From Candidatus Sungiibacteriota bacterium (lineage in GTDB: Bacteria > Patescibacteriota > Minisyncoccia > Sungbacterales > HO2-52-23): 64,000 nt of DNA. The notes under the pieces were generated by a model. That model saw only the letters and a program-made list of their open reading frames with translations. It did not search any database and had not been told where the DNA came from. Shown here piece by piece: positions 5,213 through 45,991 of the stretch (its first letter is position 1; the number at the start of each line of letters is the position of its first letter). The translations under genes were made by a program, and so were the position numbers. The stretch covers positions 8,317 to 72,316 of the forward strand of contig JACOYX010000017.1 in the NCBI GenBank assembly GCA_016181585.1, given 5' to 3'.

Positions 5213-5241
5213 AATATTCTTAAATCACAAGCGTTTGCGTA

Positions 5242-5399
5242 GGGAAACCCGCGGATTTTTCGCGGGGTTACGAAGTTGTGCAAGCATGGTTCCCGATATT
5301 CATTATTTTCTCTATAAATAAAAATCGGGATTGCACAACTTCGACCTTTTGTTTGCTCACTGGAGCAAACAAAAAAAGCGAAAAATCTGTGGGTTTCCC
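5242..5399. repeat. Structured repeat family F, copy 1: nested inverted repeats around core catggttcccgatattcatt...aaatcgggattg
   Basis: Outer IR gggaaaccc.c.gatttttcg; second IR gaagttgtgcaa/ttgcacaacttc; inner stem tcccgat/atcggga; side hairpin tttgctcactggagcaaa. Homologous copies at 45823-45957 and 7526-7589 with compensatory changes. Confidence 0.7.
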
Positions 5400-5416
5400 T
5401 ACAGGAACATACTAAA

Positions 5417-6488: not shown

Positions 6489-6489
6489 A

Positions 6490-7413: not shown

Positions 7414-7525
7414 ACGTTAAATCTTACAGACAAACATAGAACGCCCTGTCTTCGATCGAGGTTACCAACAGTAACAACAGAGTTTTGCATCGAAGCGAGG
7501 CGTTATACTTTCGAGACAATTTGGA

Positions 7526-7589
7526 AAAGCGGCAGCTTGGTTCCCGCTATTCTTATAATTCTTTATAAATAATAGCGGGACGCCGCTTT
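7526..7589. repeat. Structured repeat family F, copy 3 (core only)
   Basis: aaagcggc-agcttggttcccgctatt...aatagcgggacgccgcttt; inner stem tcccgctatt/aatagcggga covaries with tcccgat/atcggga of copies 1 and 2. Confidence 0.5.
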
Positions 7590-7653
7590 GATAGTTAGCG
7601 AGGCCGCCGCGGGAAGCGGCCGAGCGTGTCGAGAAAGCATAATGCTGAGCGAA

Positions 7654-12260: not shown

Positions 12261-12360
12261 AAATTTTTCTACTGCAATTTCAATTCGCACCAAAATCGCT
12301 TCAGCAATTTTATCTCAAAATTCTGAAATTTCGCTATGAAAATCTTTACGCAGTAGGTCT
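12246..12360. repeat. Palindromic repeat family A, copy 2
   Basis: agacctgctgcgtaaaaa ... ctttacgcagtaggtct; supplies stop codons for both flanking genes. Confidence 0.7.
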
Positions 12361-12745
12361 ATTTCTTAATTCCTGTTTTTTTCTCAAGTTCAGCAATTCG
12401 TGATTCAAGTTTAGTATATTCGTCGTAGGTAATAAGACGCTTTTTACCCCGAGGATCGGTCCACTCGTTAATTTTTCTATGGATAAAGCGAAGTTCTTCA
12501 GAGTGATCTTCAAGAATTTCTTCTATAGTACCAATTCTTTGCTCTACCGCACCCATGCGAACTTTAAGATCCTCAATATCAGACTCCAGTTTCGAGAAAT
12601 GCTTGTCCACTCGATCAAACCGCGCATCTATTGCCTCAAACCGCGCATCAACCGCGTCAAAGCCAGCTTTTACCATCACAGCCAATTCATCGATTGTAAC
12701 GCCCTTCTTTTTGGCCATAGTGCCATTATAATCAATCCATCCCAT
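12359..12745 (-). CDS. Hypothetical coiled-coil protein
   Basis: About 128 aa; repeated ARFxAIDARFDRVD heptad-like segments; the ORF-track start is TTG, so I used the first ATG. Confidence 0.45.
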   Translation of the reverse strand: MGWIDYNGTMAKKKGVTIDELAVMVKAGFDAVDARFEAIDARFDRVDKHFSKLESDIEDLKVRMGAVEQRIGTIEEILEDHSEELRFIHRKINEWTDPRGKKRLITYDEYTKLESRIAELEKKTGIKK

Positions 12746-13860: not shown

Positions 13861-13968
13861 GGGTTTAGCGACTGATGTTATTAAAACGCATCAAAACCAT
13901 AACACGTTTCAGAGAAAAATAAAAACCCCGCATGATATATGCTGGGGCTCTTTCAGATTATATGCAAA

Positions 13969-14523
13969 TTATACCTTCGGCTCAATACATTTTGCTTCCA
14001 AAATAAGCTCGCACACTTCACGCACCGCGTGACTGCCTCCCCGTGCTTCAGTGACATAGTCAGCAATCGCTTTCAATTTTTTGTGTCCGTCGGCGACAGT
14101 CACTTTCACCCCAGCAAATTGCATGGGCTCAATATCATTCACATCATCACCCATGTAAAGAATCTCTTCCGGGCTTACGTTATTTTCCGCCGCAATCCGT
14201 TTCAGGATTTTCAACTTCCCCTCACCATTTTCCACTCCCTGCCAACACTGCACTTTTATTTTTTCGCAACGCTTCGCCACAACAGGATTCGCTTCTTTCG
14301 AAATGACACCAACCACAATCCCTGCTTGTTTTTGCAGCATGCCAACACCGAGAGAATCACGCCGCGAACAACGCACCATTTCATGTCCTGTATCATCTAC
14401 ATAAACCATGCCATCGGTCATAATCCCATCAAAATCAAACGCAACGAGCCGGACAGGAACAAGTTTTCTTAACACATTTTCCCTCATTTGTCTTTGATAA
14501 TTAATCACACCACCTAGTGACAT
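13969..14523 (-). CDS. KdsC-family HAD phosphatase (sugar-acid 8- or 9-phosphate phosphatase)
   Basis: VAFDFDGIMTDG HAD motif I; GDDVNDIEPM motif; 184 aa. Confidence 0.7.
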   Translation of the reverse strand: MSLGGVINYQRQMRENVLRKLVPVRLVAFDFDGIMTDGMVYVDDTGHEMVRCSRRDSLGVGMLQKQAGIVVGVISKEANPVVAKRCEKIKVQCWQGVENGEGKLKILKRIAAENNVSPEEILYMGDDVNDIEPMQFAGVKVTVADGHKKLKAIADYVTEARGGSHAVREVCELILEAKCIEPKV

Positions 14524-14544
14524 GTTGTATTCCTCCTTCCGGTT

Positions 14545-14979
14545 TTATCCAATCCTTATCTCCTCCACCGTTGTCGTGGGAAGCCCTCCATCTATCTTTT
14601 CGCCGTAATGCTCTTCCATACGCACGCGATCATTGAACACAGGATTTGATACTTCGAAAATAACGCAATCAGTAATTGCCGTTTCGCGATGCACAGCTCC
14701 GGTCGGAATGAGCACGGTTTGTCCCGGTTTGACCGTCACCTTTGTAATCTTGCCGTCTCCCTCATCATATTCCAAAAGCATTTCGCCGGAAACAAGATGC
14801 CCCGCTTCATTTTTAACTTGATGCTTCTGCAGGCCACCCCTTGTCCCCGCTTTCATTTTTAAAATTTTGCCCGTGGCGACACCTTTGATATGCGCCACCA
14901 AAATTTCCTCTCCCCATACCCGCTCCCGCACTTCGGGTGTAAAAAATTCTATGGTTGCTTTTTTTTCTTGATTCCCCAT
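14545..14979 (-). CDS. Cupin-domain protein
   Basis: 144 aa; beta-barrel cupin signature (G.TVLIPTGAVH). Confidence 0.55.
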   Translation of the reverse strand: MGNQEKKATIEFFTPEVRERVWGEEILVAHIKGVATGKILKMKAGTRGGLQKHQVKNEAGHLVSGEMLLEYDEGDGKITKVTVKPGQTVLIPTGAVHRETAITDCVIFEVSNPVFNDRVRMEEHYGEKIDGGLPTTTVEEIRIG

Positions 14980-15045
14980 ATGTGTCCTTTCTTATGTTTT
15001 CTAATGGGCTATATTATGCAACATTTATTTGTAGATAAAAGTAAC

Positions 15046-15076
15046 AGCTACTTAGCGTTGAAACCGCTAAGTAGCT
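15046..15076. terminator. 12-bp perfect-stem hairpin agctacttagcg-ttgaaac-cgctaagtagct
   Basis: Lies 3' of the minus-strand cupin gene 15086-15511. Confidence 0.5.
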
Positions 15077-15085
15077 TATAGTTAA

Positions 15086-15511
15086 CTACACCTTAGGCAC
15101 CTTAATCACAAAAAACCGCGCCGTACCTTCCGCGCGATGCGTGTGCGGCACTCCCGCCGGAATCCAAAGACAATCACCTTTTTTTATCACTTGCTCATCT
15201 CCCCCCGCAATTTCCTTGGCAAAAATTTCCGTTTTATCTTCCGTGCCGTCGGTATTCTTTTTAAACCATGGACTCACCATTTCTCCGCCAATGGTAAATA
15301 CGGCCTCCCCCTCAATACACTGCCATAAATCAGCTTTTTCCGTATGCACTTCCGCATCATTTACTATATCAGTATCTTCAAGCATGGCCAAAGGCACATC
15401 GTTTAATTTTGTGAATGAACGCAGAGGCTCGAGCGAATGCTTACCTTGCACAGGAGATTTTTTTTTCGTCTCTTCCACAATCGAGTGAGGTATGTATATG
15501 TAAGTATGCAT
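15086..15511 (-). CDS. Cupin-domain protein
   Basis: 141 aa; LWIPAGVPHTHRAEG cupin motif. Confidence 0.55.
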   Translation of the reverse strand: MHTYIYIPHSIVEETKKKSPVQGKHSLEPLRSFTKLNDVPLAMLEDTDIVNDAEVHTEKADLWQCIEGEAVFTIGGEMVSPWFKKNTDGTEDKTEIFAKEIAGGDEQVIKKGDCLWIPAGVPHTHRAEGTARFFVIKVPKV

Positions 15512-15582
15512 GAAATATAAAATTAAATATACAGCATTTATTCACGATCGCTAATAAACGCTGGATATTTCAATTATGTCTT

Positions 15583-16299
15583 TTATCTATTGTGGCGGAG
15601 TAGCGCTTTTTCCGCCTCTTCCCAATCTTCCATGCTATCAATATTCACGCTATATTTTTGCTCCATTGGATACGCCCGCACATCATCACCATAAAAAGTT
15701 GGTTCCGAACGAAATAAAAGTTCGGTCTTAAAAAGATATATGGCGCCGTTTCGCGTATATGTTTTTCCGAGCTCCTGCCTTCGCTTCACGATTTGCGAAA
15801 ACGGCTCGCCCGTAAAAATTTGCAAATGATTTTCCGCGTCAATTAAAAACTGCCAATGCGGATTAAAATGTTGGGGAATTTCCGAGACGCTCACGATCGA
15901 ATCTGCATTAATTTTTTCCATAAGCTCCGCCGACTCGCGAATATGAAAATCCTGCCGCAGGGGACATGTGGGCTGTAAAATCATCACATAATCCGATACA
16001 AAATTTTCATTGTCGCGAAGCCAGTTTACCGCGTGTTGTAGTACCGGTAAGTGCGGCGTGGTATCTTGCGCAAGTTCCGCCGGACGCATGAAAGGCACTT
16101 CGGCGCCGCACTGCTTTGCAACATTGGCAATTTCTCTATCATCCGTTGAAAGAATCAAGCGTGAAATAACGCCGGATTCTTTGGCGGCTTTGATGGTATA
16201 AGCAATGAGGGGTTTTCCCGCAAGCTCTTTTACGTTTTTCCGCGGAATACCTTTTGACCCTCCGCGAGCAGTGATGATACCGAGAATAGTTTTTGGCAT
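15583..16299 (-). CDS. Acylneuraminate cytidylyltransferase family (CMP-nonulosonic acid synthetase, NeuA/KdsB-type)
   Basis: ILGIITARGGSKGIPRKN signature; 238 aa. Confidence 0.8.
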   Translation of the reverse strand: MPKTILGIITARGGSKGIPRKNVKELAGKPLIAYTIKAAKESGVISRLILSTDDREIANVAKQCGAEVPFMRPAELAQDTTPHLPVLQHAVNWLRDNENFVSDYVMILQPTCPLRQDFHIRESAELMEKINADSIVSVSEIPQHFNPHWQFLIDAENHLQIFTGEPFSQIVKRRQELGKTYTRNGAIYLFKTELLFRSEPTFYGDDVRAYPMEQKYSVNIDSMEDWEEAEKALLRHNR

Positions 16300-16383
16300 A
16301 AGTAAACCTTACAAGATTAAAACGATTTATTCAAATGTTTTGTAATATTTTAAAATCGGCGCTATAAACTAGCGCCGATTTAT

Positions 16384-17313
16384 TTATAAAGAAAGCAGAA
16401 TTGTTCCCAGAAAAAGTACTGCTGATCCGATGATTCTTTGCCGAAAATATCCCTCACCAAGAAACAAAAATGCAAGGAGAACTGTCCATAAAATTTGTGT
16501 CCGTTTCAGCGCTCCCACATAGGGCGCAATTCCATAATAATATCCCGCATTGTACATACACGCCGCAACACCAAACATCATACCAACCATAAATACCCGC
16601 CAAAACATTTCTTTGGAAAGTTTTTGCCACACGCCTCGTCTCATTGATTCAAAAAATACCACACACGCAACGATAGTAAAAACCGAGCCGGTAAAAAACA
16701 TAGGGTCAGAGCGGAGTACGCCGAGTTTATCAAAACTGATGCTTATGGCGCCAAGATACGCTACCAAAAGCGCCAATCTTGCGCCCTTACTTGCAAACAA
16801 GCGAAACCACGGCCCTCCCCAATATGCCAAAAAGTTTTGCCATCGCACCGGGCACACACTGGCCATTGTCTTGGGTAAAGCAACCGGTTTTCCGCCAAGA
16901 TAAAGCGTATATGCGCCAATACCTATTAACACAATCCCAACTCTTCCCCATGCCGTAGGCCACTCGCCAAGAATTACATACGACATCAGTATCGCAAACA
17001 TCGGCATTGCGGAAGATAACGGGACAACGATAGACGCATCTTCAAGCTTGAGTGATTTGATATTGAGATATTGGATAAACACATTGAGAAATGCGGTAAT
17101 GGCAAAGGGAATCCAAAATCCCTGTTGTACGTTTGGCGTGCCGTAAAAAATCAAACTTCCTGAAAACCCCGCGCATGCTGCGCCCAACATGGTCACCACC
17201 GTTACAAAATCTTCATGCACCGCCTGCGTCAGCAATTTCTTTTTAATAATATTGGAAATAGCATGAAGCAATGCTCCGCCCATCACAAACCCATAAATCG
17301 GTAACCCCATCAT
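16384..17313 (-). CDS. EamA/DMT-superfamily membrane transporter
   Basis: 309 aa; 10 predicted TM helices; duplicated EamA-like halves. Confidence 0.55.
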   Translation of the reverse strand: MMGLPIYGFVMGGALLHAISNIIKKKLLTQAVHEDFVTVVTMLGAACAGFSGSLIFYGTPNVQQGFWIPFAITAFLNVFIQYLNIKSLKLEDASIVVPLSSAMPMFAILMSYVILGEWPTAWGRVGIVLIGIGAYTLYLGGKPVALPKTMASVCPVRWQNFLAYWGGPWFRLFASKGARLALLVAYLGAISISFDKLGVLRSDPMFFTGSVFTIVACVVFFESMRRGVWQKLSKEMFWRVFMVGMMFGVAACMYNAGYYYGIAPYVGALKRTQILWTVLLAFLFLGEGYFRQRIIGSAVLFLGTILLSL

Positions 17314-17364
17314 TGTTAGACCCTTTCTTAAAAAAAGGAGGACTGGCTTGTCCTCCTTAGTTAC

Positions 17365-18357
17365 TTATACCTTCACCGCAGTAAACACCGCAGTCGGATG
17401 ATATGACATCATATTTTGCATTTGCTCAAAATCCGGCTCACGAAAAAGTTGAGTCATCGCTTCGTTCATCAACGCGAGTTTTTTCTCGCTTGATAATTCA
17501 GAAAGCGGAGGCCAGCGGAAAAATACCGTCCAGCCGTTGCGGATGAATTCAATTACGCGTAAACCATTCAAGGGAATAAAATTCTCAGTAAACAACAAAG
17601 AAGAAAGTCCGGCTTTAAGACTTGCCTGTACCAAAAAATCATATGTCATTTTTGCAGAACCCAAAGGCCAAAGGTTTTCCCGAGTAAAATCAGGGTATTC
17701 CCGCTTCACAACGCCGTAAAGAATTTGATGTGTCCGCTGATATAACGGATGTGAAAGCTCGGTAAGAATTTCTCCGCTATTTGTGAATGTGCGATGATCA
17801 CTGATACGCGTCAAGAATTTAAAATTTGAAGGTCCGAGATCAAAAGCAAATACACCGCATTTTTTGAGCACACACGAAACTTGCTCAAGAACTTTTGGCA
17901 CCAAACTTTCCTTGCCCGGAGGGTTGAAGAGATGAAATGCCTGGCAACACAATATCGTATCCACACCATTGAAAGATTCGTGGAAAGGTTCGTCCTGCAA
18001 TCCCGGTACACCAGTCCACAGATCTGCTACTTGGTGGAGCGAACGTAAAAGCGTCTCACCGCGCCCGCCAACGATAGTCACCAGCGGGTCACCCATGGTG
18101 TTCAACCCTAAGAAATATCTCATTCCCTCATCGGGCTCAACCGCTATCACGCGCTCTGCGTGTTGCAAAATTTCCATTGTGGAAATTCCAATGCCTGCAC
18201 CAATTTCTACCACTGCACCAAGATTCTTTTTTCCAAGCCGCGCTTTCGCCGCATTAATAACAAACCGAGCTGATTCTCGGTAATAATCATCTCGCAAATT
18301 AAACGCCGCATACGGTATCGCCGCATTTCCTGAAAAAATACTCGTTACTTCTACCAT
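17365..18357 (-). CDS. Class I SAM-dependent methyltransferase
   Basis: VVEIGAGIGIST motif I; 330 aa. Confidence 0.65.
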   Translation of the reverse strand: MVEVTSIFSGNAAIPYAAFNLRDDYYRESARFVINAAKARLGKKNLGAVVEIGAGIGISTMEILQHAERVIAVEPDEGMRYFLGLNTMGDPLVTIVGGRGETLLRSLHQVADLWTGVPGLQDEPFHESFNGVDTILCCQAFHLFNPPGKESLVPKVLEQVSCVLKKCGVFAFDLGPSNFKFLTRISDHRTFTNSGEILTELSHPLYQRTHQILYGVVKREYPDFTRENLWPLGSAKMTYDFLVQASLKAGLSSLLFTENFIPLNGLRVIEFIRNGWTVFFRWPPLSELSSEKKLALMNEAMTQLFREPDFEQMQNMMSYHPTAVFTAVKV

Positions 18358-18439
18358 CTAGCATTACCTCCCTTATAATTTTGCTCTTAAGAGCTAATAA
18401 AACTAGTACATTATATAAAGATTACTGTCAAGACACAAA

Positions 18440-18480
18440 TAAAAAACCTTACGAGACATGGTCTCGTAAGGTTTTTTATT
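18440..18480. terminator. Bidirectional terminator: 13-bp-stem hairpin aaccttacgagac-atg-gtctcgtaaggtt flanked by A/T runs
   Basis: aaaaaa...tttttt flanks a perfect stem. Confidence 0.65.
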
Positions 18481-18485
18481 GAACA

Positions 18486-19658
18486 TTATATCTCCTTTGC
18501 TTCAAAAAAATTTTTTTGTATCTGCAAGGTTGCGCGCGCGAGCACTTTTGCAATTTTTTCGCTCGTTTTGGCTTGGTGATAAAGTATTGCGGGCGGATAG
18601 CGGCCGTGTTCGAGCTGACGCAAAATAGCACCTTTGATTTCTTGTTTCCTGTGGCCAACATCAAGCACGTTTGGCCCGCGAAGGCGGTTTTGCTGGCGCG
18701 TGCCGATATTGACCACCGGCGTACCGAGATACGAACATTCTTTAATGCCAGATGAGGAATTGCCGATTAAGCACTTTGCGCTCCGCAAAAGACCAATAAA
18801 ATCCTCAGGCAAGAGATCAGTCACAAAACGAATGTGATGATTTTCCGATCCCACGCGCTCGCGCCAGACGCGAATCACTTTTGCAATTTCATGCGTGCCT
18901 GCGTCGCTATTCGGCCAAAACCAAGCCGTAGGCATTTTGAGCTCATCAATTACCTTAAAAAGTTCTTCTGCGTTTTCTTGATTATTCTTTTCCGTAGTTA
19001 CGGGATGCTGCATAACCACAAGAAATGGTTTTGCAACATCAATGTGCGCTCCCACACCCGCGGCATTCACCACTTCGCCTTTATTTTTTTTGGAAATGGA
19101 TGCCACAAATTCTATGTCTAGCGAACCCACATTAAATACATATTCCGGATGCTCCCCCATCTGAATTACGCGCCTTCGCGAATCTTCATTGGTAACAAAA
19201 TGAATATGCGAAAGTTTGGTAATCGCGTGGCGCACGCTTTCATCAATCGTACCGGAAAGATCGCCGCCTTCAATGTGCGCGATTGTTTTATTCAAATACG
19301 CCGCCGTCATCGCAAGCGCCAACTGCTCAAAACGATCTCCGCGGATCAAAACAATATCCGATTTAAGGCGATCCAAAGAATTAGAAAATTCAAGCGCCGT
19401 AAGTCCTGCCGTGCGTGCCATTGCCACATGATGCCCGCCTTCTATAACATTATACAACACATCGCTGATTTTAAACCCCGCCTTTTCCATTGCAGGCAAA
19501 AATCGCTCGCCGTATTTATCGATCAGAACTGATCCTCCAGCAACAAGCTGCAAATCAATATCCTTATGATGCAGCATTTTTTCCAGCAATAATTTCTGCC
19601 TCGCGTAATGCACGCGGCTGGTGATCGGAAAACAGATTTTTCTTTTACCTTTTTTCAT
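18486..19658 (-). CDS. UDP-N-acetylglucosamine 2-epimerase, hydrolysing type (NeuC/LegG family)
   Basis: 390 aa; Epimerase_2 motifs (HIEGGDLSGTIDESVRHAITKLSHIHF, QHPVTTE). Confidence 0.8.
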   Translation of the reverse strand: MKKGKRKICFPITSRVHYARQKLLLEKMLHHKDIDLQLVAGGSVLIDKYGERFLPAMEKAGFKISDVLYNVIEGGHHVAMARTAGLTALEFSNSLDRLKSDIVLIRGDRFEQLALAMTAAYLNKTIAHIEGGDLSGTIDESVRHAITKLSHIHFVTNEDSRRRVIQMGEHPEYVFNVGSLDIEFVASISKKNKGEVVNAAGVGAHIDVAKPFLVVMQHPVTTEKNNQENAEELFKVIDELKMPTAWFWPNSDAGTHEIAKVIRVWRERVGSENHHIRFVTDLLPEDFIGLLRSAKCLIGNSSSGIKECSYLGTPVVNIGTRQQNRLRGPNVLDVGHRKQEIKGAILRQLEHGRYPPAILYHQAKTSEKIAKVLARATLQIQKNFFEAKEI

Positions 19659-19714
19659 ATATCTCTCGCCTTAACACTAAAAATTGGTCTAATACTGAAA
19701 TTCACAAAGGCTGT

Positions 19715-19907
19715 CTCGGCTGCTATGATTTCAGACAATTGGATCGTCGGATTGGATTGGTTCCGCGTACTCGCGGGACAATCCGACGATCCATTAGAGA
19801 GGCCGCCGCCGGGTCAAAAGCACTGCTTTTGACGGGCAGTACTCTACCCCTGGATTTTGCTGTCGGAAGCAAAATCGGCGAAAGGGTCTGAAATCATAGC
19901 AGCCGAG
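19715..19907. repeat. Structured intergenic element with 22-bp perfect terminal inverted repeats (ctcggctgctatgatttcagac / gtctgaaatcatagcagccgag) and three internal hairpins, copy 1
   Basis: Interior holds a 14-bp-stem hairpin (ggatcgtcggattg...caatccgacgatcc) with apical ttccgcgtactcgcgg, plus hairpins gtcaaaagc/gcttttgac and gattttgct/gcaaaatc. Confidence 0.75.
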
Positions 19908-19927
19908 GCAACCGCCCCCTCGACAAC

Positions 19928-21283
19928 TTACAAATTTTCCAAAATAAAATTACCAATTCTCTCCCCAGATTTTCCATCCACAAACTTACACTGGCTTTCA
20001 ACAAGTTTTCTGCGTCCCGCAGAATCGAGCATGGGATCCGCCAAATACTTCTTCACCCACCCTATCAAATCTTCCTCGCTTCCGGCAAGACGGATACCCC
20101 CGTGATCAAGGGCTTTTTTATAATGCGCCATGGCATAAAATTGTGTGGGTGACTTGCACAAAGCCTCATGCGGCCGAATTTCAAAATTAAGATTTATCAC
20201 CGGCTTGTTAAACACCGAGCCGTCTATACTGATGCTCGAAGCGTAACACACGAGAATCGACATATGGTACAACGTATCGGCAAGGTATTTTAGTTCCGCA
20301 AAATCCATATCCCAATCCACTCCCCTTTTCTCGGAAAATCGCGTTCCTGGGTAAGTATAGAGAAGCTTTGGGCGATTGTTTAAATCTTTCGGATCAATAA
20401 AATCATTGGGAGGGAACCGCACTAAGATTTTTATATTATTCCCAAATTTTCCTTCTTCCGCAAGTCGGTTCAATAAATCCATCATATCCCAATCGGAATT
20501 ACTAAACGCACTGCCAATCGGAGAATAGACAATCAATTTCGTGTCGGCAGGCAAATTCAGTCCCCGAAAATATTCTTCGCGCGTGTTTGGCCTCAAAGAA
20601 AAATATTGGTCATATTGCGGTATGCCGCCGGTAAAAATAATATCAGGATTGATGTTGTTATAGAGCATCAAATCTTCTTTGATAAGATCATTAAAAACCA
20701 CAAGATGGTCCGGCACGATGCGTAAAATACACCTTCCTGAAACCCGATCCCATGTATTGATAAATCCTATTGTCTTCACCTTGTTTTTTTTCGCCTCCCG
20801 CAAAAAATGCACCTCCCGTTCATCAAAAAGATTTGCAAGAAATACAAGATCCGGCCGGTATTTCGCAAAATATTTCGCGTACACGCGATCACGCACAAGG
20901 CGATAATCCAAAAAACGCACTGCGGCGAGAACTACAGGACGCGCCAAAAGCCAATTGATAACATTGCTCCATTGATAGGAAACGTAATTTCCTCGCATAT
21001 CATAATCCATACGACGCCGCAATTTTGTGGTCTCCGTCCGCAAAAGCGTGTATTTAAATTTGCGGAATAACCCGTCGAAACCCATTACTGCAGGGTTTTC
21101 CACCACTTCATAAAAAACCCGCGGATCATTGAATTCTTTTTTAAGATACTCAAGCCGTTTTTTATTTTTCGTAAACAAAACAAGGCGAATATCTTTTCGC
21201 TTCATCAATATTTCAAAAACAGGAGTCCGCAAAATATTTTTCGACTCCACCCCCTCAAAAATTGTTATAAAAATTGTTTTCAT
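19928..21283 (-). CDS. TagF-like (CDP-alcohol glycerophosphotransferase-type GT-B) putative transferase, paralogue 1 of 3
   Basis: 451 aa; shares WDxxxxxG and C-terminal ...F.DG..G.R... segments with 45992-47377 and 51455-52837. Confidence 0.45.
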   Translation of the reverse strand: MKTIFITIFEGVESKNILRTPVFEILMKRKDIRLVLFTKNKKRLEYLKKEFNDPRVFYEVVENPAVMGFDGLFRKFKYTLLRTETTKLRRRMDYDMRGNYVSYQWSNVINWLLARPVVLAAVRFLDYRLVRDRVYAKYFAKYRPDLVFLANLFDEREVHFLREAKKNKVKTIGFINTWDRVSGRCILRIVPDHLVVFNDLIKEDLMLYNNINPDIIFTGGIPQYDQYFSLRPNTREEYFRGLNLPADTKLIVYSPIGSAFSNSDWDMMDLLNRLAEEGKFGNNIKILVRFPPNDFIDPKDLNNRPKLLYTYPGTRFSEKRGVDWDMDFAELKYLADTLYHMSILVCYASSISIDGSVFNKPVINLNFEIRPHEALCKSPTQFYAMAHYKKALDHGGIRLAGSEEDLIGWVKKYLADPMLDSAGRRKLVESQCKFVDGKSGERIGNFILENL

Positions 21284-21343
21284 TTTCTTCCTTCATCACA
21301 GACCCCCACATGTGAGAAAATGCCATCGAAAAAGAATGCGGCC

Positions 21344-21476
21344 TCGGCACACTCTGTTTGCGACAATTGGACCCGCAAGTTTGCATGGTTTCCGCGCACT
21401 CGCGGAAAAACTTGCGGGTCCCTTAACAAATTCCGCGCTGGCGGAATTTGTCGGGTCGCAAACAGAGTGTGCCGAG
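21344..21476. repeat. Structured intergenic element with 22-bp perfect terminal inverted repeats (ctcggcacactctgtttgcgac / gtcgcaaacagagtgtgccgag), copy 2
   Basis: Same architecture as 19715-19907: aattgga start, 14-bp stem gacccgcaagttt/aaacttgcgggtc around ttccgcgcactcgcgg, then hairpin aattccgc-gctg-gcggaatt. The stems differ by compensatory changes. Confidence 0.75.
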
Positions 21477-21502
21477 AAAGCCGCAACCCATAACTACAAA
21501 AC

Positions 21503-22192
21503 CTATTTTTTCTCCATCACATAAATCACATAATTCCCAAACCATTCATTCGCCGGCAATATATGCTTAAACCGTTCTTTCCCAAAGAGAAAAACCCCGG
21601 GCTTTGTATAAATTGTTTTCTCCAAATCAAAATATCGTAAAAACGTTTTTTTAAACGTGTCTTTCGTGAATACCGTAATATGATTATTTGATTCATTCCA
21701 GCGCGGAAACGTGCCTTTTTTCAAAAATAAAAGTCGGCTTGTAACGTGGAAAACATTGGGAAGGGCAAAAATAAATTTAGCGCCCGGTTTTATGACACGA
21801 TACACTTCCCGCATAAAGTGATAGGGATTTTCCATGTGCTCCCCGATTCCCCACGCCGCAACCCCGTCGAATGAATTGTTGGGATACGGAATTTTTTCAG
21901 TATTCAAATCAATAACTGTAAAAGCCATTTTGGTGCGATCCGCAAATTTCAAGGCATCATAAAAATCCACCGCGTGAATATCGGTATAATTATGGTCCTG
22001 AAGAATTTTCGTAAAAGCTCCCGTGTGCGGTCCGCATTCAAGAATCTTTCCATTTTTGGGAAAATACTGCAAAGCAAGAGACGGCTCTGTTGTCCCCATA
22101 AACCGCGTACCGCCCTCGACCTCTTCTTTTTCCCGCACCCATTCGGGATGCATGCGCATTTCTTCAACAGTGATATATGCTGGTTTTTTCAT
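21503..22192 (-). CDS. Class I SAM-dependent methyltransferase
   Basis: Methyltransf_11-like (ILECGPHTGAFT..., DGVAAWGIGEHMENP); start moved to MKKPAYI; the ORF-track N-terminal extension runs through a structured repeat. Confidence 0.65.
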   Translation of the reverse strand: MKKPAYITVEEMRMHPEWVREKEEVEGGTRFMGTTEPSLALQYFPKNGKILECGPHTGAFTKILQDHNYTDIHAVDFYDALKFADRTKMAFTVIDLNTEKIPYPNNSFDGVAAWGIGEHMENPYHFMREVYRVIKPGAKFIFALPNVFHVTSRLLFLKKGTFPRWNESNNHITVFTKDTFKKTFLRYFDLEKTIYTKPGVFLFGKERFKHILPANEWFGNYVIYVMEKK

Positions 22193-22215
22193 ATAATAAT
22201 AGAGTTTGGCGAATA

Positions 22216-22354
22216 TTGTCATTGCGAGCCTGCCCGCCTGCTGTCTTAGGACAGCCAAACCAGGTCGCAGACATCGGCTAGGGTGCTGACGAAGCAATCT
22301 CATACTTACGATATGAGATTGCTTCGTCCAGGTAGAACAGGGACTCGCAATGAC
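22216..22354. repeat. Nested inverted-repeat element (outer tgtcattgcgag/ctcgcaatgaca; inner 15-bp-stem hairpin cgaagcaatctcata-cttacga-tatgagattgcttcg)
   Basis: Outer 12-bp IR encloses gctgtc-ttag-gacagc and a 15-bp perfect hairpin; sits immediately 5' of methyltransferase gene 21503-22192. Confidence 0.6.
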
Positions 22355-22448
22355 ACTGTAGGCCATTATTCACCAAACCCTGTTTTACCTACTTGACTAT
22401 TACTTAGCTTAGTTATACTTTATTCTTAAGATCTTTCTTGGAGAAGAT

Positions 22449-22676
22449 ATGAACAGAAAATATGGTGCACTGCCTCCTCCTGAAGCAGCTTGGCAAATTG
22501 GCAAAACAGCTAAATTTATCACGCGAATTAATGAAATTAGCAGACGGTTGGAAGAATATCATAAGCATCTCAATGACCCTTATACTTTCTACCCGGACGA
22601 AGTTGATGCTGTTCGTGAATTAAAAACACACGCAGCTGAAGATATCGAATTTTTGCTTGGTGAAATTAGAAAGTAA
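22449..22676 (+). CDS. Small hypothetical protein (75 aa)
   Basis: Upstream TTGACT...TATACT promoter-like boxes and GGAGAAG RBS. Confidence 0.45.
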   Translation: MNRKYGALPPPEAAWQIGKTAKFITRINEISRRLEEYHKHLNDPYTFYPDEVDAVRELKTHAAEDIEFLLGEIRK

Positions 22677-22984
22677 ACCGCTCTTTTTTTCATTTCCTCA
22701 TTGCCCGTGACACCTCTGCTTTTCCAATAACCAACCGCAGGGATTTTCCTTATTTTAAGCCACCTTTTCAGCTACTTGACTTCTCAACAAAGAAATGATA
22801 GCGTGTAAATGTCTGATGGGACAGAGGTTGGAATTGTCTACAGACAGTTTGCCTTAAAGCGCCGACCTCTCGGGACTACCCATCCAGCCCAATTGGGACG
22901 AATGCCGCGATAGACGCGGGGTAGAGAGGAAACGCGACCATCCCATCAGGCATGCTCAGCTCTTTGGAGTTGAGCTTTTCTTTG

Positions 22985-23033
22985 TCCTCACTTTCCATGA
23001 CACCTCTGCTTTTTCAATAACCAACCGCAGGCC
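22985..23033. repeat. Repeat family G (cctcactttccatgacacctctgcttttcaataaccaaccgcagg); four copies at 22692-22750, 22985-23033, 23563-23620 and 23990-24050
   Basis: Copies 2 and 4 share an identical 23-mer. On the minus strand it reads gaggtgtcATGgaaagtgagga.aaa and forms the RBS/start of the NUDIX gene; copy 3 encodes the NUDIX C-terminus. Confidence 0.6.
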
Positions 23034-23206
23034 TGCCAGCCGAAGCCTCGGCGTAGGCGGGGATTTTCCCGCGGCCTTCCGTAGCTTTTAGCGTAGGAGG
23101 CTTTATTTCCCGCCAGAGGCGTGTCCGCCTTCGGCGGATAAGCTGTTTTTCCATCTTTGGCACGATTGAATTTGCTGAATGATAGAAAATGTCATGCGAA
23201 ATTTTC

Positions 23207-23235
23207 TTGACATAGCATACATTTATTTCTATACT
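23207..23235 (+). promoter_or_regulatory. Sigma70-type promoter TTGACA-N17-TATACT for the 23272 gene
   Basis: TTGACA 23207-23212; 17-nt spacer; TATACT 23230-23235; AGGAGG RBS at 23258. Confidence 0.6.
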
Positions 23236-23271
23236 TTTTTCAGAACCTGATAACACAGGAGGTACCCTCGC

Positions 23272-23511
23272 ATGAAGTATCTGCTTACTTTTCTCGCTAT
23301 TTTTGCTGCCTTTACGCTTTTGATTTTCGGTGCTATCCATCTTGATCTATTGCTAAATCCTTGGCTTCGTAACGCCGTGCAGGAGTGGAGGTGGTATAAC
23401 TATTTCACCTCGCATCATGCCGTTACTGCTCTTTACCTGGGAGGATGGCTCTGGTTAATTCCTTCGTTCATCATCTCGGCAATAGCATCTTTAGTTATCA
23501 CACAAGATTAG
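23272..23511 (+). CDS. Small two-TM membrane protein (79 aa)
   Basis: Strong promoter and SD; hydrophobic helices; terminator follows at 23521-23556. Confidence 0.55.
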   Translation: MKYLLTFLAIFAAFTLLIFGAIHLDLLLNPWLRNAVQEWRWYNYFTSHHAVTALYLGGWLWLIPSFIISAIASLVITQD

Positions 23512-23520
23512 CCAGTCATC

Positions 23521-23556
23521 TGCGCCCGGTTCACTGGAATCGGGCCTTTTTCTTTA
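23521..23556 (+). terminator. Rho-independent terminator gcccgg-ttcactggaat-cgggc + T-run
   Basis: Stem-loop followed by ctttttcttt. Confidence 0.5.
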
Positions 23557-23583
23557 TATTATCTCCCATGACACTTTTGCTCT

Positions 23584-23982
23584 TTATTGACTAGCCCGCA
23601 GGGATTTACTCACAAAATCTTTTAAATACGGCGTTGTCTCTAACTCCATAAATTCGTCTTTTGTAACCCATCGGAATTCGGTGTGCTCGTTGTTTAACTT
23701 TACATCACCGTTTACCGCCTTGCATCTGTAGCCGATAAATAGCACATAATTATCTTCATCCTTGTTGTAAGCGGTTTCCACAACCAGCGGAATAATATTG
23801 TCTATATCTATTCCAGCTTCTTCTTTTACTTCTCGTCTTAGTGCGGTTTCGTGTTCTTCTGGTATTTCAACTGCTCCGCCCGGTAAATCCCATCGCAATC
23901 CTTTATATGATGCTTTCAACACAAGAAACTTACCCTCTCTATTTGACACAATTGCTTTCTGGTGAAAATTGATTTTAGCCAT
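23584..23982 (-). CDS. NUDIX hydrolase
   Basis: Nudix box GGAVEIPEEHETALRREVKEEAGI; start moved to the second ATG (MAKINF...), which has GGAAAGTGAGGA upstream. Confidence 0.75.
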   Translation of the reverse strand: MAKINFHQKAIVSNREGKFLVLKASYKGLRWDLPGGAVEIPEEHETALRREVKEEAGIDIDNIIPLVVETAYNKDEDNYVLFIGYRCKAVNGDVKLNNEHTEFRWVTKDEFMELETTPYLKDFVSKSLRASQ

Positions 23983-24012
23983 ATTTTTTATCCTCACTTT
24001 CCATGACACCTC

Positions 24013-24687
24013 TTATATTTCTTTCCACTTCCTCACTTCCTCATTTGCCTTTTTATATCTCTCCTCGGTTCCCGCATCGATCCAATATCCTTTATGCAAA
24101 AAAACATTCAGTTCGCCGCTCTCGGCAAGCCGCGGAAAAATCTCTTTTTCGATCATAAATTCTTCCGGTGTGTTTTCAAACACAGTCGGCGACAAAAGAT
24201 AAAATCCGCAATTCACATACCCCGTAATTTTTTCCTGCGGTTTTTCGAGAAACTCTTTTATCTTGCCATTATCAATGTTTAAAAGCCCAAAATCCCGCGC
24301 ATCGCTCACCTCCACACACATGATAGTATTGGGCAAAGAGCGCATCATCGCGGAAATATCCACATCAGTTAAACCATCTCCATTGAGCACCAAAAATGGT
24401 TCTTTCAAATCACGACTCGCGAATTTAATTCCCCCGCCCGTACCCAAAGGCCTCGGTTCCACCACATACTCAAATTTTCCCGGCCACTTCGCCTCACAAA
24501 ATGCGATAACCTGATCTGCCTTATGATACAAACTCAAGCGAATGTCGAAGATGCCATGCTTTTGCAATAAATTTACTTGATGCTCCAAAATCGTAACTCC
24601 ACCGACTTCAGCAAGCGGCTTTGGCCTCTCTCCCGTAATTTTTGCAAGCCGGGTGCCGAAACCACCGGCTAAAATAATTGCTTTCAT
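24013..24687 (-). CDS. Sugar-phosphate nucleotidyltransferase (NTP_transferase family)
   Basis: MKAIILAGGFGTRL signature; 224 aa; the start codon lies inside the left 22-bp TIR of the MITE-like element. Confidence 0.75.
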   Translation of the reverse strand: MKAIILAGGFGTRLAKITGERPKPLAEVGGVTILEHQVNLLQKHGIFDIRLSLYHKADQVIAFCEAKWPGKFEYVVEPRPLGTGGGIKFASRDLKEPFLVLNGDGLTDVDISAMMRSLPNTIMCVEVSDARDFGLLNIDNGKIKEFLEKPQEKITGYVNCGFYLLSPTVFENTPEEFMIEKEIFPRLAESGELNVFLHKGYWIDAGTEERYKKANEEVRKWKEI

Positions 24688-25142
24688 CCCACACATAACT
24701 TACACAAGACTATATTGAAGACACTCTTTAAGTCTCCGTAAACCCTGCGCATTTAATTGGTCTGTTGCCGAATAGCACTTTGACTACAATTGCATAAATT
24801 CGGTCAAATTTTTCAAAAAATTTCTTGGCTTATCTTCCAGATAGGCCGCAAAATTTTTTGAAAAATTTGCCTCGAATTTCTGCAACTTCGCGACGTAGGC
24901 TATTCGGCAACAGACCCTTAATTTTAAAGATTGTTCTCTCTTATAAGCATCATCTTTTTACACATAAGCTTCATAGTACACAAGTCGCCATGGCAAATAC
25001 TTTTTTGTGTACGACGACTTGCCACTGTTATGCTGATATAGTCTTCTACGAAGATCACCTGTACCCTACGTACAAACCATCAACAGTTTCAGATTTGAGC
25101 AAATACACATAATACATGTTTGTGTAAGTTATGTGTGGGATG
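24685..25142. mobile_element. MITE-like element: 458 bp bounded by 22-bp perfect terminal inverted repeats (catcccacacataacttacaca / tgtgtaagttatgtgtgggatg); non-coding interior built from mosaic repeat modules
   Basis: TIRs at 24685-24706 and 25121-25142. Interior carries module D (ggtctgttgccgaatagc ... gctattcggcaacagacc) and module C (cttggcttatcttccagataggccgcaaaa), both shared with 40596-40775, 42021-42477 and 57660-57893. The TIRs supply the start codon of 24013-24687 and the last 5 codons plus stop of 25129-25857. Confidence 0.6.
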
Positions 25143-25857
25143 AATTACTTTTTCTCAATAACAACTCCGCAATCTCAAAATCAATCGCGTGATCAATATC
25201 CACCGTCGGCCTTTTAAGAAAATACGGCAAAACCTTACCACCAATGACTGAATTTTTCTCCATAATTGTACTATAACGCACCACACCGATATCTGCAGTG
25301 GTCTGATACACTTTGGGCAATGACTGACGAGGTGCGGTATGCCAATCTTTCATGCCAGGCATATCTGAAACAAAGGGGTCAATAAAATCTCCCGCTATCT
25401 TCCACATTTTAAAGGGTGGCTTCGATGGCTCTTCTATCGAACGCACACTATCGGCTTCCGGAAATTTTTCCAAAAGCTCAATGGACTCATCAATCTCCTC
25501 CGCGGTACGCAAAGGCCCGGTCGGCCGCAAATGCACTAGAATATCCGGCTGATATTTTTCATGATCCTTCAGCCACTCCAGTGCGTGTAAAAAAACCGGC
25601 GTATCCGGCGTCAAATCTTCAGCTAAATTTGCGGGACGCAAAAAAGGCACCTCGACGCCATATTTTCTTGCGATGTCGGCAATCTCTTCATTGTCGGTAG
25701 ACACAATCACGCGATCAATATATTTTGATTTTTTTGCCACACCAATGCTCCACGCAAGCAACGGTTTACCCGCAAGTAATTGTATGTTTTTTTTCGGTAT
25801 CCCCTTTGATCCCCCCCTCGCAGGGATGAGAGCTAATATCTTTTTTCTATTTATCAT
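25129..25857 (-). CDS. Acylneuraminate cytidylyltransferase family (second CMP-nonulosonic acid synthetase)
   Basis: ILALIPARGGSKGIPKKN signature; start moved to MINRKK; last 5 codons lie in the TIR. Confidence 0.75.
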   Translation of the reverse strand: MINRKKILALIPARGGSKGIPKKNIQLLAGKPLLAWSIGVAKKSKYIDRVIVSTDNEEIADIARKYGVEVPFLRPANLAEDLTPDTPVFLHALEWLKDHEKYQPDILVHLRPTGPLRTAEEIDESIELLEKFPEADSVRSIEEPSKPPFKMWKIAGDFIDPFVSDMPGMKDWHTAPRQSLPKVYQTTADIGVVRYSTIMEKNSVIGGKVLPYFLKRPTVDIDHAIDFEIAELLLRKSNSSHT

Positions 25858-25886
25858 AAATAGTTTTGAGTGATACAATACTTACC

Positions 25887-26876
25887 TCAAACCCTATGTC
25901 TATTTTTTAGAACCGTCTTTTCCTCCCAATTATACACCCATTCATTCCCCACCAAACTCGCAAAACGACCCCTATAATAATCACGATTCAGCATTTCCGT
26001 ATGTGTCATATCCCGCTCCGCATGCCCCAACATGATCCGCCACTCCGGAATTTCTTTGTCAACAAACAGTCTCTGCTCATCTTTAGCAATCTTGGCAAAC
26101 CGCGAAAGCTCTTTCAGTTGCGAAGGATTAATCGAAACCGGCCCGTCTTTTGTTTTATCGGCTGGCAAAACAGTAAAATGCCGCTCAATATAATCCGCGC
26201 CAAGCATAAGCGCGGTTTGCGCGGCTTTTATTCCATCCCGAGCGACCAGCGTATGGTCGGACCATCCCACTTCCGGAGTAAACTTTCGAAGCCACTCCAT
26301 ACGCGTCAAATTTGCCATTGAGAGCGTATTGGGATAGCTTGTCACGCAATGAAGCAATGTAAACCGTTTATTTTTTTCTTTCAAAATCCTTGCCGTTTCT
26401 TCCACCTCTTCATTAAATGTAGCGCCAGTTGAAACAACCAATGTGTCAAAATTATCCGCTAGTTCGCGGATCATGGGAAAACTGCCGCAATCGTAACTCG
26501 CAACTTTTACCAATCTTTCACCGCCATAGGGAAGCGATGCGGACAGCGGAATTCTTTTGCGGGAAAACACCGTAAGCATGGGCACAGCACCCGCCCTTTT
26601 TACTTCTTCTACAAAAAAATGATAGTCCGCTTCGGCAAGATCAAGAGCCCTCAACCGTGAGGCTTCCGCACCATACGGCCGATGAATCGCTTTGCGGACG
26701 CCGTTATGTTCAACATGCCCCGCATCAAAACGCTCGCGGCGCGTGGTATCTTCTGAAAAAATAATCTGCCCTTTAATAATATCCGCACCGCTTTCTGCCG
26801 CCGCATGAATCAAATCCTTTAAAAGCGCACGATCGCCATTATGATTTTGACATACCTCTACAATAATTTTAGGCAT
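25887..26876 (-). CDS. NeuB-family nonulosonic acid synthase, second paralogue (no clear SAF domain)
   Basis: 329 aa; NeuB TIM-barrel motifs (VEVCQNHNGD, GWSDHT); diverged from 12751-13860 and 42478-43557. Confidence 0.65.
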   Translation of the reverse strand: MPKIIVEVCQNHNGDRALLKDLIHAAAESGADIIKGQIIFSEDTTRRERFDAGHVEHNGVRKAIHRPYGAEASRLRALDLAEADYHFFVEEVKRAGAVPMLTVFSRKRIPLSASLPYGGERLVKVASYDCGSFPMIRELADNFDTLVVSTGATFNEEVEETARILKEKNKRFTLLHCVTSYPNTLSMANLTRMEWLRKFTPEVGWSDHTLVARDGIKAAQTALMLGADYIERHFTVLPADKTKDGPVSINPSQLKELSRFAKIAKDEQRLFVDKEIPEWRIMLGHAERDMTHTEMLNRDYYRGRFASLVGNEWVYNWEEKTVLKNRHRV

Positions 26877-26963
26877 TTTGATAATATGTTTCGAGCCTGT
26901 CGAGAAACACCATTAGTATATTCCCTTTTGCCCGTTTCTTCATTCTCTCATATTACTAGAATT

Positions 26964-27020
26964 GCCCCGCAGAACACAACGGGGCATAGATAATGATAAA
27001 ACCCCATGTGCGGGGTTTTT
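26964..27020. terminator. Tandem hairpins gccccg-cagaacacaa-cggggc and aaaacccca-tgtg-cggggttttt (bidirectional terminator region)
   Basis: Second hairpin has T-runs on both strands. Confidence 0.55.
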
Positions 27021-27058
27021 GTTTCAGAATATGTTTGCAGTGCCTAACAAGAATAGTA

Positions 27059-27385
27059 TCAAAATTTATCCTTAAACTCCGCATGCAAAAGAGGAATATA
27101 TTCCTTAAGCCACGATTTGTGATTTTTAAATAAAATTTTCTCTGCCTCATTCAAAAATGAAACACGCCCGCTTAATGGAATTACATTAGCAATCATACTA
27201 ATCAATATACGCTCGCGCATCGCAAGCAACGCTGCAACGTTGCTTGGTATCAATTCCTGTTTCCACTTTTTTGTGTCGGTGATATGGAACAGAGTTAAGA
27301 ACTCTGTCAAATCTTTATGCACAATCGTCGCGCGTCGCTTCTGCGCCGGCGTCACCGTAGTTGTTGGATGTTTTTTATGCGGCAT
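27059..27385 (-). CDS. Hypothetical protein (108 aa)
   Basis: Complete ORF with a terminator downstream; no recognisable motif. Confidence 0.4.
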   Translation of the reverse strand: MPHKKHPTTTVTPAQKRRATIVHKDLTEFLTLFHITDTKKWKQELIPSNVAALLAMRERILISMIANVIPLSGRVSFLNEAEKILFKNHKSWLKEYIPLLHAEFKDKF

Positions 27386-27442
27386 TTATAATACTCCATT
27401 GCCGTAACGTACTATAGTTTAGTATAACAACATATCACAAAA

Positions 27443-28648: not shown

Positions 28649-28764
28649 CTCAATTTCTAATATCTAATTCCTAATTTCTAATGAAATTTGAATGTTTAAA
28701 ATGTCCCAAATTAAAAATCGCATTTAGCTATTTCATTGGAAATAGGATATTAGAAATTAGGAAT

Positions 28765-30513: not shown

Positions 30514-30782
30514 GCTATCATTTATGCAGTTCTAGGAGGTGGCCATGTGAAGCAAACTTGCAGCAAGATCTCTTTTATTTGGTATATTTTTGGGTTACGG
30601 AATATATGACTTAACAGATAGCCCAAGTGCTGCAATTGCATTCGGTGCCGCTATGGCAATATTGCCTCACTCGCTTCTTGATTGTAAATAATATTTTTCA
30701 CCTGAGAGCCTCAAATCGAGGCTTTTAATTATTATATCTGTCGCCTTATAAATTTCGTGACGAACTTTATAAGGCGACATGC

Positions 30783-31508: not shown

Positions 31509-31510
31509 AT

Positions 31511-45795: not shown

Positions 45796-45822
45796 GGCAA
45801 TAGCACGAGAAAGGTCACTATT

Positions 45823-45957
45823 GATTTTTCGCGGGGTTTTGAAGTTTCGCAAGCATGGTTCCCGATATTCATTATTTTATTTTTATAAATGAAAATCGGG
45901 ATTGCGAAACTTCACCCTTCAATTTGCTCGCTGGAGCAAATTGAAAAAGCGAAAATT
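45823..45957. repeat. Structured repeat family F, copy 2
   Basis: gaagtttcgcaa-gcatggttcccgatattcatt...aaatcgggat-tgcgaaacttc; side hairpin atttgctcgctggagcaaat; compensatory changes relative to copy 1. Confidence 0.7.
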
Positions 45958-45991
45958 AATAGTGACATTTCTCCAATTTTAATAATAAAAG

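Follow-up and report, generated by a model that had tools for sequence, protein, structure and literature searches.

Small palindromic repeats in bacterial spacers have been described in several forms. REPINs, which are built from repetitive extragenic palindromic (REP) sequences, carry a pair of strongly conserved arms of ~16-25 nt, and tens to hundreds of near-identical copies accompany a single gene for a REP-associated tyrosine transposase (RAYT). REPIN hairpins often carry compensatory changes, one on each side (PMC3116915). MITEs (miniature inverted-repeat transposable elements) form families that are defined by conserved sequence and usually have target-site duplications and ends derived from insertion sequences (IS). 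Intergenic hairpins processed by RNase III are found in phage T7 early mRNA and in ribosomal RNA operons. Patescibacteria have tiny genomes and are usually described as poor in mobile DNA. Here we report on two elements, E1 and E2, which lie on either side of a TagF-like gene in a metagenome-assembled genome of Candidatus Sungbacteria (Patescibacteria, of the candidate phyla radiation (CPR)). The stretch analysed, hereafter the window, comprises 64,000 nt of contig JACOYX010000017.1. E1 and E2 are real, related, heavily base-paired non-coding elements, and our analysis points to later insertions into an older operon, most likely of small selfish repeats.

Fold and covariation of the E elements

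In gene direction, the order is methyltransferase, E2, TagF-like gene, E1 and UDP-N-acetylglucosamine (UDP-GlcNAc) 2-epimerase, followed by a strong terminator hairpin (18480-18438). E1 is 20 nt past the TagF stop codon and E2 lies 59 nt ahead of the TagF start; like the rest of their family, they leave coding sequence uninterrupted. The earlier note had described both as bounded by perfect 22-bp inverted repeats (IRs), and the arms are indeed complementary at 22 of 22 positions in each. Its coordinates hold for arms and pairing, except that E2 starts at 21343 and not one base further on at 21344, and the inner hairpin with a conserved apex that it reported is present, with measured stems of 14-15 bp rather than 13-14 bp (Table 1). 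By our own arithmetic, a perfect 22-nt IR within 400 nt is expected by chance about 1e-6 times per 64 kb. The arms of E1 can be extended to 28 nt at 93% complementarity (19709-19913). In both elements the outer arm starts with CTCGGC and ends with GAC, and is followed on the + strand by AATT and then by GGA, which opens the perfect hairpin B (15 bp in E1, 14 bp in E2). The apex of hairpin B reads TTCCGCG(T/C)ACTCGCGG in both. Beyond hairpin B there is one hairpin in E2 (11 bp) and there are three in E1. Sequence similarity between the two elements is limited to ~45 nt at 71% identity plus short motifs. Each is predicted to fold into a closed, multi-branch structure, with z-scores against shuffled sequences of -10.9 to -13.7 as RNA, for both strands, and of -11 to -14 as single-stranded DNA. 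A separately assembled Logan contig (L001) is 100% identical over 13423-21456, so that E1 and E2 are no assembly artefact of a single pipeline.

Five members of the E family are known, namely E1, E2 and the more diverged E3 in the window, and E1' and E4 in a related metagenomic genome. E3 was first spotted by eye and later matched by covariance model R1, which was built without it; E1', likewise absent from model building and truncated, was also matched (E-value 4.6e-05). E4 lies between the TagF and epimerase genes of the relative and was obtained by joining two contigs, L008 and L010, through a 17-nt overlap. It has the architecture of E2 and an identical hairpin-A apex (CCGCCAGCGCGG), but its outer stem, its 14-bp stem (GGATTGATGGGTTA/TAACCCATCAATCC) and its mini-hairpin (CATGCG/CGCATG) are wholly unlike their E2 counterparts. 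E1', between the methyltransferase and TagF genes of the relative, has its arms on two contigs, one where L012 ends and one where L008 starts; they were joined by arm complementarity (25 bp paired, a single mismatch) and the middle is missing. Over 47 nt of its 3' part, E1' matches E1 of the window at 91% identity, at non-orthologous spacers, and E1 resembles E1' plus ~66 nt (three hairpins) placed within the loop of hairpin A.

What makes a member of the E family is its fold and a few short unpaired motifs; stem sequence is not conserved. The fold comprises an outer stem of ~22 bp, at least one variable hairpin, and then a 14-bp hairpin that has a small apical hairpin and a 7-8-nt 3' internal loop. 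The unpaired motifs are, on the gene strand, GAC-CC(G/T), TAA(G/T/C)-GGA, (G)AACCA(T/A)(G/T)C and TCC-AATT-GTC, with conserved nucleotides in the internal loop and at the junctions. Orientation relative to the genes does not vary among the five members, and R1 scores far lower on the opposite strand (22.8 vs 86.9 bits for E1).

The claim that E1 and E2 are homologous and have conserved their pairing despite sequence change was borne out. The alignment of the three complete sequences, E1, E2 and E4, was scored for covariation in the 14-bp stem, in the apical stem (6 bp) and in the outer stem, of which the inner 10 bp were taken. Standard pairs fill 98.9% of the 89 cells, and 17 of the 30 aligned pairs have two-sided changes against no one-sided change. 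None of 500 shuffles matched the observed values of pairing and covariation, and sliding the partner columns by 1-3 positions lowered pairing to 26-40%; hairpin B alone gave the same picture. Between E1 and E1', 4 of 19 outer-stem pairs differ, three of them fully compensated. Covariation of this kind supports the helices of a structured RNA, yet a DNA palindrome predicts the same pattern. In RNA families, helices selected as RNA normally include G-U pairs in appreciable proportion on the strand that is transcribed; the helices of the E elements have essentially none. Among the 17 covarying pairs of E1, E2 and E4, neither strand-specific G-U pairs nor one-sided changes mark the transcribed strand. 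Because such one-sided changes are absent, a constraint at the DNA level is favoured, be it a DNA palindrome or arm-to-arm correction acting on both strands, although this is suggestive only. G-U pairs in minimum-energy folds number 10 on the + strand and 9 on the - strand for the E elements and the F elements described below, and 64 and 49 over 17 palindromic elements, a strand comparison that is uninformative.

Related loci with and without the elements

The earlier note had proposed that TagF moved as a cassette, which the related loci do not support. Five related contigs (L005, L006, L007, L009 and L011) keep the order methyltransferase-TagF-epimerase and have no element at the orthologous spacers. 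Their TagF proteins are 64-79% identical to that of the window where the gene is complete (L011 has the C-terminal end only), and across six related loci the neighbours of TagF are unchanged. As the gene order is kept without the elements, the position of TagF is older than they are. At these empty sites, the TagF-epimerase junction is an ATGA overlap (L005, L011) or a spacer of 5 bp (L006) or 38 bp (L007), and the methyltransferase-TagF spacer measures 14-40 bp with only a small hairpin of ~10 bp inside (L005, L006), the arms of which covary between the two contigs. In L009, the 64% identical relative, the latter spacer is occupied by an open reading frame (ORF) for an 85-residue GIY-YIG nuclease (1321-1578), and this site, where E2 sits in the window, seems to be an insertion hot spot. 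The three TagF paralogues of the window are only 25-30% identical to one another. In the window, each of the other two (45992-47377, 51455-52837) has a palindromic element of another family, on its downstream side only. No target-site duplications are visible at the IR ends, as judged by reading the flanks of E1 and E2 and by comparison with the empty sites; the immediate flanks are inverted, not direct (GGCTGT|...|GCAACC for E1, TGCGGC|...|AAAGCC for E2).

The closest available relative, from sequencing run SRR22388256, is represented by three short contigs (L008, L010 and L012) that end within elements. Its TagF, epimerase and methyltransferase are 82, 89 and 85% identical to those of the window. 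In the window, the methyltransferase-TagF spacer has E2 as its core and the TagF-epimerase spacer has E1; the corresponding cores of the relative are E1' and E4. At each spacer, the sequences directly outside the elements are homologous between the two genomes and the outermost stems are orthologous. The common flanks are GGTTGCGGC ... GCCGCA(ACC) at the methyltransferase-TagF spacer, with a leader of ~40-55 nt to the TagF start, and GGCG(T)GGTT(G/C)C ... AC(C)A(C)GCC at the TagF-epimerase spacer. Had the TagF segment been excised and reintegrated once, the cores would be swapped, but E2 and E4 would also be as alike as E1 and E1', and they are not. Replacement of the cores by other family members would be the simpler reading.

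The window is collinear with L012 from 21475 to 34034 (~13 kb), at 72-82% nucleotide identity (77-80% in coding DNA). Over this stretch the spacers are 0-139 bp long in L012 and 116-1217 bp in the window. L012 is without most of the intergenic elements of the window, without the NUDIX gene at 23584-24009 and without the 1.2-kb gap at 22367-23583. The longer spacers indicate that the lineage of the window has gained many elements.

Explanations for the E elements

Searches for described counterparts returned little. At gathering thresholds, Rfam has no match in the whole window; in E-value mode, E1 and E2 gave nothing but hairpin noise, largely of the microRNA type (11-27 bits, against thresholds of 35-219). 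The pattern AATTGGA-N(10-30)-TTCCGCGNACTCGCGG found two chance matches, in atpA of Acidobacteria, among species-representative genomes, a collection that does not include the species of the window. In JGI metagenome contigs, the strict pattern had no match and a relaxed one, which fits E1, E2 and E4, had a single chance match in a coding region; the loop motif of E3 and the F elements had three chance matches in viral contigs, none of them structured. With the data reachable, the E family is confined to this Sungbacteria lineage within the collections scanned. In the literature, we found no relevant description of similar elements in Patescibacteria or Parcubacteria. As for the known classes of small mobile elements, E1 and E2 resemble MITEs in being short, non-coding and enclosed by terminal IRs; no base is duplicated relative to the empty sites, and multiple sequence-conserved copies derived from an IS were not found, nor was an IS in the window. 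Compensatory evolution that keeps the hairpin is also seen in REPINs, but the arms of E1 and E2 are alike only in CTCGGC and GAC and do not form two inverted copies of a conserved REP in one hairpin. The 64-kb window has no RAYT/TnpA(REP) gene.

The explanation that we favour, to which we give about an even chance, is that the E elements are insertion elements of the broad REP/REPIN/MITE kind, non-autonomous, restricted to one lineage, defined by structure and moved in trans as folded single-stranded DNA. E1 and E2 would be old, diverged members of a small family of multi-hairpin palindromic insertions that settled in a conserved operon for glycan biosynthesis, in the short spacers between its co-directional genes, being neither ancestral to the operon nor carriers of TagF. 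The analysis shows the family with its fold, compensated changes and insertion polymorphism, and the lack of coding capacity, of counterparts among known RNA families and of target duplications; mobility itself, the single-strand mechanism and the mobilising enzyme are what we infer. Such an enzyme, encoded elsewhere, would copy or move the elements in trans, recognising the folded single strand together with the junction motifs, as Y1/HUH transposases do for REPs and REPINs and for the ends of IS200/IS605. Copies may have landed in or beside pre-existing intergenic hairpins without duplicating the target. Two things might have kept the arms perfectly complementary: propagation limited to copies that can fold, or correction of one arm by the other at the DNA level. 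Given their location inside an operon, the elements should be transcribed into very stable RNA structures, but consequences for the mRNA, if any, would be a mere side effect.

Several observations weigh against this explanation. Only five members are known and none is near-identical to another, which gives no sign of recent copying, and E4 and E1' were pieced together from short contigs. Neither target duplications nor a common flanking target motif define the ends of the elements. A Pfam scan of the larger ORFs of the 64-kb window and of the small ORFs in the gap 22367-23583 revealed no transposase, integrase/recombinase or nuclease. In addition, the uniform orientation and strictly intergenic position of the elements fit an RNA role equally well, and the conserved unpaired motifs imply that something reads the fold, without distinguishing DNA from RNA.

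A role as cis-acting structured RNA in the polycistronic glycan mRNA is possible but unlikely in our estimation. The elements would be processing sites of the RNase III type, or protective 3' or 5' structures, which would allow a long transcript to be cut into separately stable units, as in phage T7 early mRNA, with the conserved loops binding a protein. They are located between co-directional genes with the same polarity to transcription in all five members, E1 and E2 are each followed by a leader of ~55 nt with a Shine-Dalgarno-like sequence, and their outer helix of exactly 22 bp corresponds to about two helical turns, the size preferred by bacterial RNase III; the conserved unpaired motifs and the strong covariation also speak for it. 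However, orthologous operons work without the elements, and close relatives have different members at a given spacer. That 17 covarying pairs show no G-U or one-sided change and no strand asymmetry is unusual for a selected RNA helix, the family has no counterpart in Rfam, and many unrelated palindrome families occupy the same type of spacer. As for transcription signals, the outermost stem of E2 is followed on the gene strand by ATTCTTTTTCG (terminator scan entry 21355-21333); no T-run follows E1, E1' or E4, the terminator of the gene block is the one beyond the epimerase gene, and a promoter and terminator scan of the window gave background levels. A selfish DNA element in an operon may also shape its mRNA, and the readings considered here are not fully exclusive.

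It is tempting to go beyond insertion elements of the known kinds, although we consider this improbable. The E family, and perhaps the other nested palindromes of the genome, could represent a new type of structure-specified mobile DNA in the CPR, with precise excision of cores and their replacement by other members. Recognition would depend on the multi-helix fold and a few junction nucleotides, not on sequence, and insertion would occur into the loops or feet of intergenic hairpins acting as landing pads. Excision and replacement of cores would explain why orthologous spacers of two close relatives have the same outermost stem and different cores. If this is true, Patescibacteria would have to encode a transposase or recombinase for single-stranded DNA that is as yet undescribed.

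Alternatively, the palindromes might not be mobile at all. They would have arisen and grown in place, at intergenic hairpins already there, by replication slippage or template switching and been kept perfect by arm-to-arm correction, functionless and without a dedicated enzyme. We find this quite improbable, even if the covarying ~10-bp hairpin already present at the methyltransferase-TagF spacer of L005 and L006, the nested architecture with site-specific outermost stems, the likeness of E1 to E1' with hairpins added in a loop and the exclusively two-sided changes are in keeping with it. Growth in place does not account for the recurrence, at different sites in two genomes, of one module order, one set of unpaired motifs and stems of 22 and 14 bp, nor for the 91% identity of E1 and E1' at non-orthologous spacers when coding DNA is only 77-80% identical.

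Lastly, structure-specific recombination sites similar to the attC sites of integrons, at which a recombinase would shuffle genes or element cores within the glycan locus, are very improbable: structure is kept while sequence varies, short motifs mark the helix feet and the cores beside TagF look exchanged between fixed outermost stems, but the RYYYAAC/GTTRRRY boxes are absent from the element ends (GTTGCCT of E1 and GTTGCGG of E2, on the gene strand, fail at RRR), the outer stems have no bulges or extrahelical bases of the attC type, the 64 kb hold no intI or other integrase, TagF has constant neighbours in every relative, and the predicted similarity of E2 to E4 is not observed. A retron was rejected for lack of a reverse transcriptase, and riboswitch, small-ORF and ribozyme readings were dropped since the elements are not at the operon start, are not conserved across taxa and have no ribozyme matches.

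Palindromes of the window and described systems

The window is a very large glycan locus with nearly all genes on the - strand, encoding three NeuB paralogues, cytidylyltransferases, glycosyltransferases, methyltransferases and a Wzy-like protein. A scan for perfect IRs and folding of every spacer revealed nested near-perfect palindromes in many intergenic spacers, which form at least five families besides E (Table 1). The F elements have the module order of E2, and the 3' internal loop of their hairpin B (GGGAACCATGC) is of the same kind. F1 and F2 differ in their outermost stems, which are site-specific; their compensated changes number seven, of which six fall in the inner hairpins. R1 at default filters matched neither, so that the link between E and F comes down to the architecture and the GG(G)AACCA(T/A)GC loop; a joint MAFFT alignment of the two families misaligned the stems and was unusable. 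The extra hairpins of E1 and the site-specific outer stems of the F elements suggest insertion into existing hairpins.

Of the TAGACCTACTGCGTAAAGAT family, the copy at 6335 and that at 51257 share 89% identity, one pair being broken, and the TagF paralogue at 51455-52837 has a copy immediately downstream of it. The ORF at 6490-7413 (307 aa), between an element of this family and E3, covers only part of the N-terminal domain and the central domain of a UDP-glucose/GDP-mannose dehydrogenase and is probably a gene fragment; its complete 582-aa paralogue is at 28765-30513. The larger of the GGTCTGTTGCCGAATAGC palindromes (~330 nt) includes segments similar to other families, suggesting that some elements are nested inside others. 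AT-rich palindromes similar to those of the window are found in L007 (1-100) and L012 (9200-9280), and some of their carriers are without E elements.

Upstream of E2, the ORF 21503-22366 reads through the GTCATTGCGAG...CTCGCAATGAC palindrome, which yields a spurious 58-residue N-terminal extension of the methyltransferase (…VIAS…KQSH…RLLRQ…LAMT); homologues and the NCBI annotation place its start at MKKPAY. Within or beside the 1.2-kb non-coding gap upstream of this gene there are short GC-rich direct repeats, 87-96% identical (22687-22741/22976-23031 and 22981-23007/23987-24013). A 75-residue ORF antisense to the operon (22449-22676, + strand) has no Pfam match. ORFs alike in size (74-76 aa), strand and position are present in L004, L005, L006 and L009; L012, whose spacer there is 39 bp long, has no counterpart.

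Table 1. Palindromic elements and genes of the TagF locus and of the window (positions in the window unless a contig is named)
Feature	Position	Strand	Remarks
E1, whole element	19709..19913	.	includes imperfect outer extension (GGCTGT.../...GCAACC); core 19715-19907 within 22-bp IR
E1 outer stem, left arm	19715..19736		CTCGGCTGCTATGATTTCAGAC; pairs with 19886-19907
E1 outer stem, right arm	19886..19907		22/22 complementary to 19715-19736
E1 hairpin B	19740..19793		15-bp perfect stem 19740-19754/19779-19793; R1 match 19732-19799, 86.9 bits
E1 hairpin B internal loop			asymmetric; GATTGGT on + strand, AACCAATC on - strand
E1 hairpin B apical mini-hairpin	19761-19776		
E1 extra hairpins	19813..19876		three stems, none present in E1'
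E1 extra hairpin 1	19813-19833		GTCAAAAGC/GCTTTTGAC
E1 extra hairpin 2	19834-19849		GGGCAG/CTACCC
E1 extra hairpin 3	19853-19876		GATTTTGCT/AGCAAAATC
E2, whole element	21337..21482	.	includes outermost GCGGC/GCCGC stem; core 21343-21476 within 22-bp IR
E2 outer stem, left arm	21343..21364		CTCGGCACACTCTGTTTGCGAC; pairs with 21455-21476, 22/22
E2 outer stem, right arm	21455..21476		
E2 hairpin B	21369..21421		14-bp perfect stem 21369-21382/21408-21421; R1 match 21360-21428, 92.3 bits
E2 hairpin B loops	21390-21405		apical mini-hairpin at the position given; internal loop GCATGGTT
E2 hairpin A	21426..21451		11-bp stem; apex CCGCGCTGGCGG (CCGCCAGCGCGG on - strand), common to E4
E3	7513..7600	.	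R1 27.6 bits, E-value 4.4e-05
F1	5240..5402	.	E-like: outer stem, hairpin A, hairpin B with loop GGGAACCATGC
F2	45809..45973	.	second F copy; directly downstream of TagF paralogue 45992-47377
Family with 20-nt arm TAGACCTACTGCGTAAAGAT	6335-6495, 12240-12363, 40668-40786, 51247-51445, 57740-57900, 59885-59924		six copies or fragments
Palindrome GTCATTGCGAG...CTCGCAATGAC	22217-22355		also L010 150-180 and 5300-5414
Large nested palindromes, outer arm GGTCTGTTGCCGAATAGC	24751-24921 and 42057-42390		pair
AT-rich perfect palindromes of AAAATGAAAAATGA-like units	28649-28765, 40603-40675, 55445-55571		in spacers
TagF-like CDP-glycerol glycerophosphotransferase gene	19928..21283	-	Pfam PF04464; NCBI MBI2056290.1, on an 84-kb contig; E2 upstream, E1 downstream
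S-adenosylmethionine-dependent methyltransferase gene	21503..22192	-	upstream of E2; true start 22192, longer ORF reaches 22366
UDP-GlcNAc 2-epimerase gene	18486..19658	-	downstream of E1

A glycan locus in which nested, perfectly paired elements have invaded nearly every spacer, next to a relative that is ~78% identical and without most of the insertions, would be notable in Patescibacteria and would point to active dynamics of small elements there. The structure-defined nature of the family, the replacement of cores at fixed sites and the genome-reduced CPR host are the points of interest. The palindromes also have practical consequences. They fragment short-read assemblies of this lineage, as the Logan contigs L001, L008, L010 and L012 all end within palindromes (L001 at 21456, the inner edge of the E2 outer arm), and they create false N-terminal gene extensions such as that of the methyltransferase. 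Perfect covariation may reflect maintenance of a palindrome at the DNA level and not RNA function, which calls for caution in pipelines for the discovery of RNA motifs. Should an enzyme that reads the fold be found, it could become a new structure-specific DNA tool.

Compared with described systems, the E elements share with intergenic RNase III hairpins long perfect helices between the cistrons of one transcript, but they are dispensable in orthologous operons and essentially free of G-U pairs. Like integron attC sites, they form a family defined by structure with sites between co-directional genes; in contrast with them, they are larger and perfectly paired, and they have no R/L boxes, extrahelical bases, integrase or gene mobility. 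Mitochondrial hairpin elements, double-hairpin elements and GC clusters are likewise small hairpin repeats; they invade intergenic spacers and multiply in certain lineages but are missing from close relatives (PMC2800124). They are organellar and form simpler hairpins, and neither homology nor shared motifs are expected. With bacterial MITEs (Correia, ERIC, RUP, BOX), the E elements have in common a size of 130-200 bp, terminal IRs, intergenic positions in operons, presence/absence polymorphism between relatives and the potential to fold in mRNA, but neither conserved sequence nor target-site duplications and IS-derived ends. Unlike REPINs, they have unconserved arm sequences, a 3- to 5-way junction and five diverged members, with no RAYT in the 64 kb. 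Yet, like REPs and REPINs, they are short, non-coding, intergenic, hairpin-forming and non-autonomous and lack target-site duplications, and in both it is folded single-stranded DNA that is thought to be recognised.

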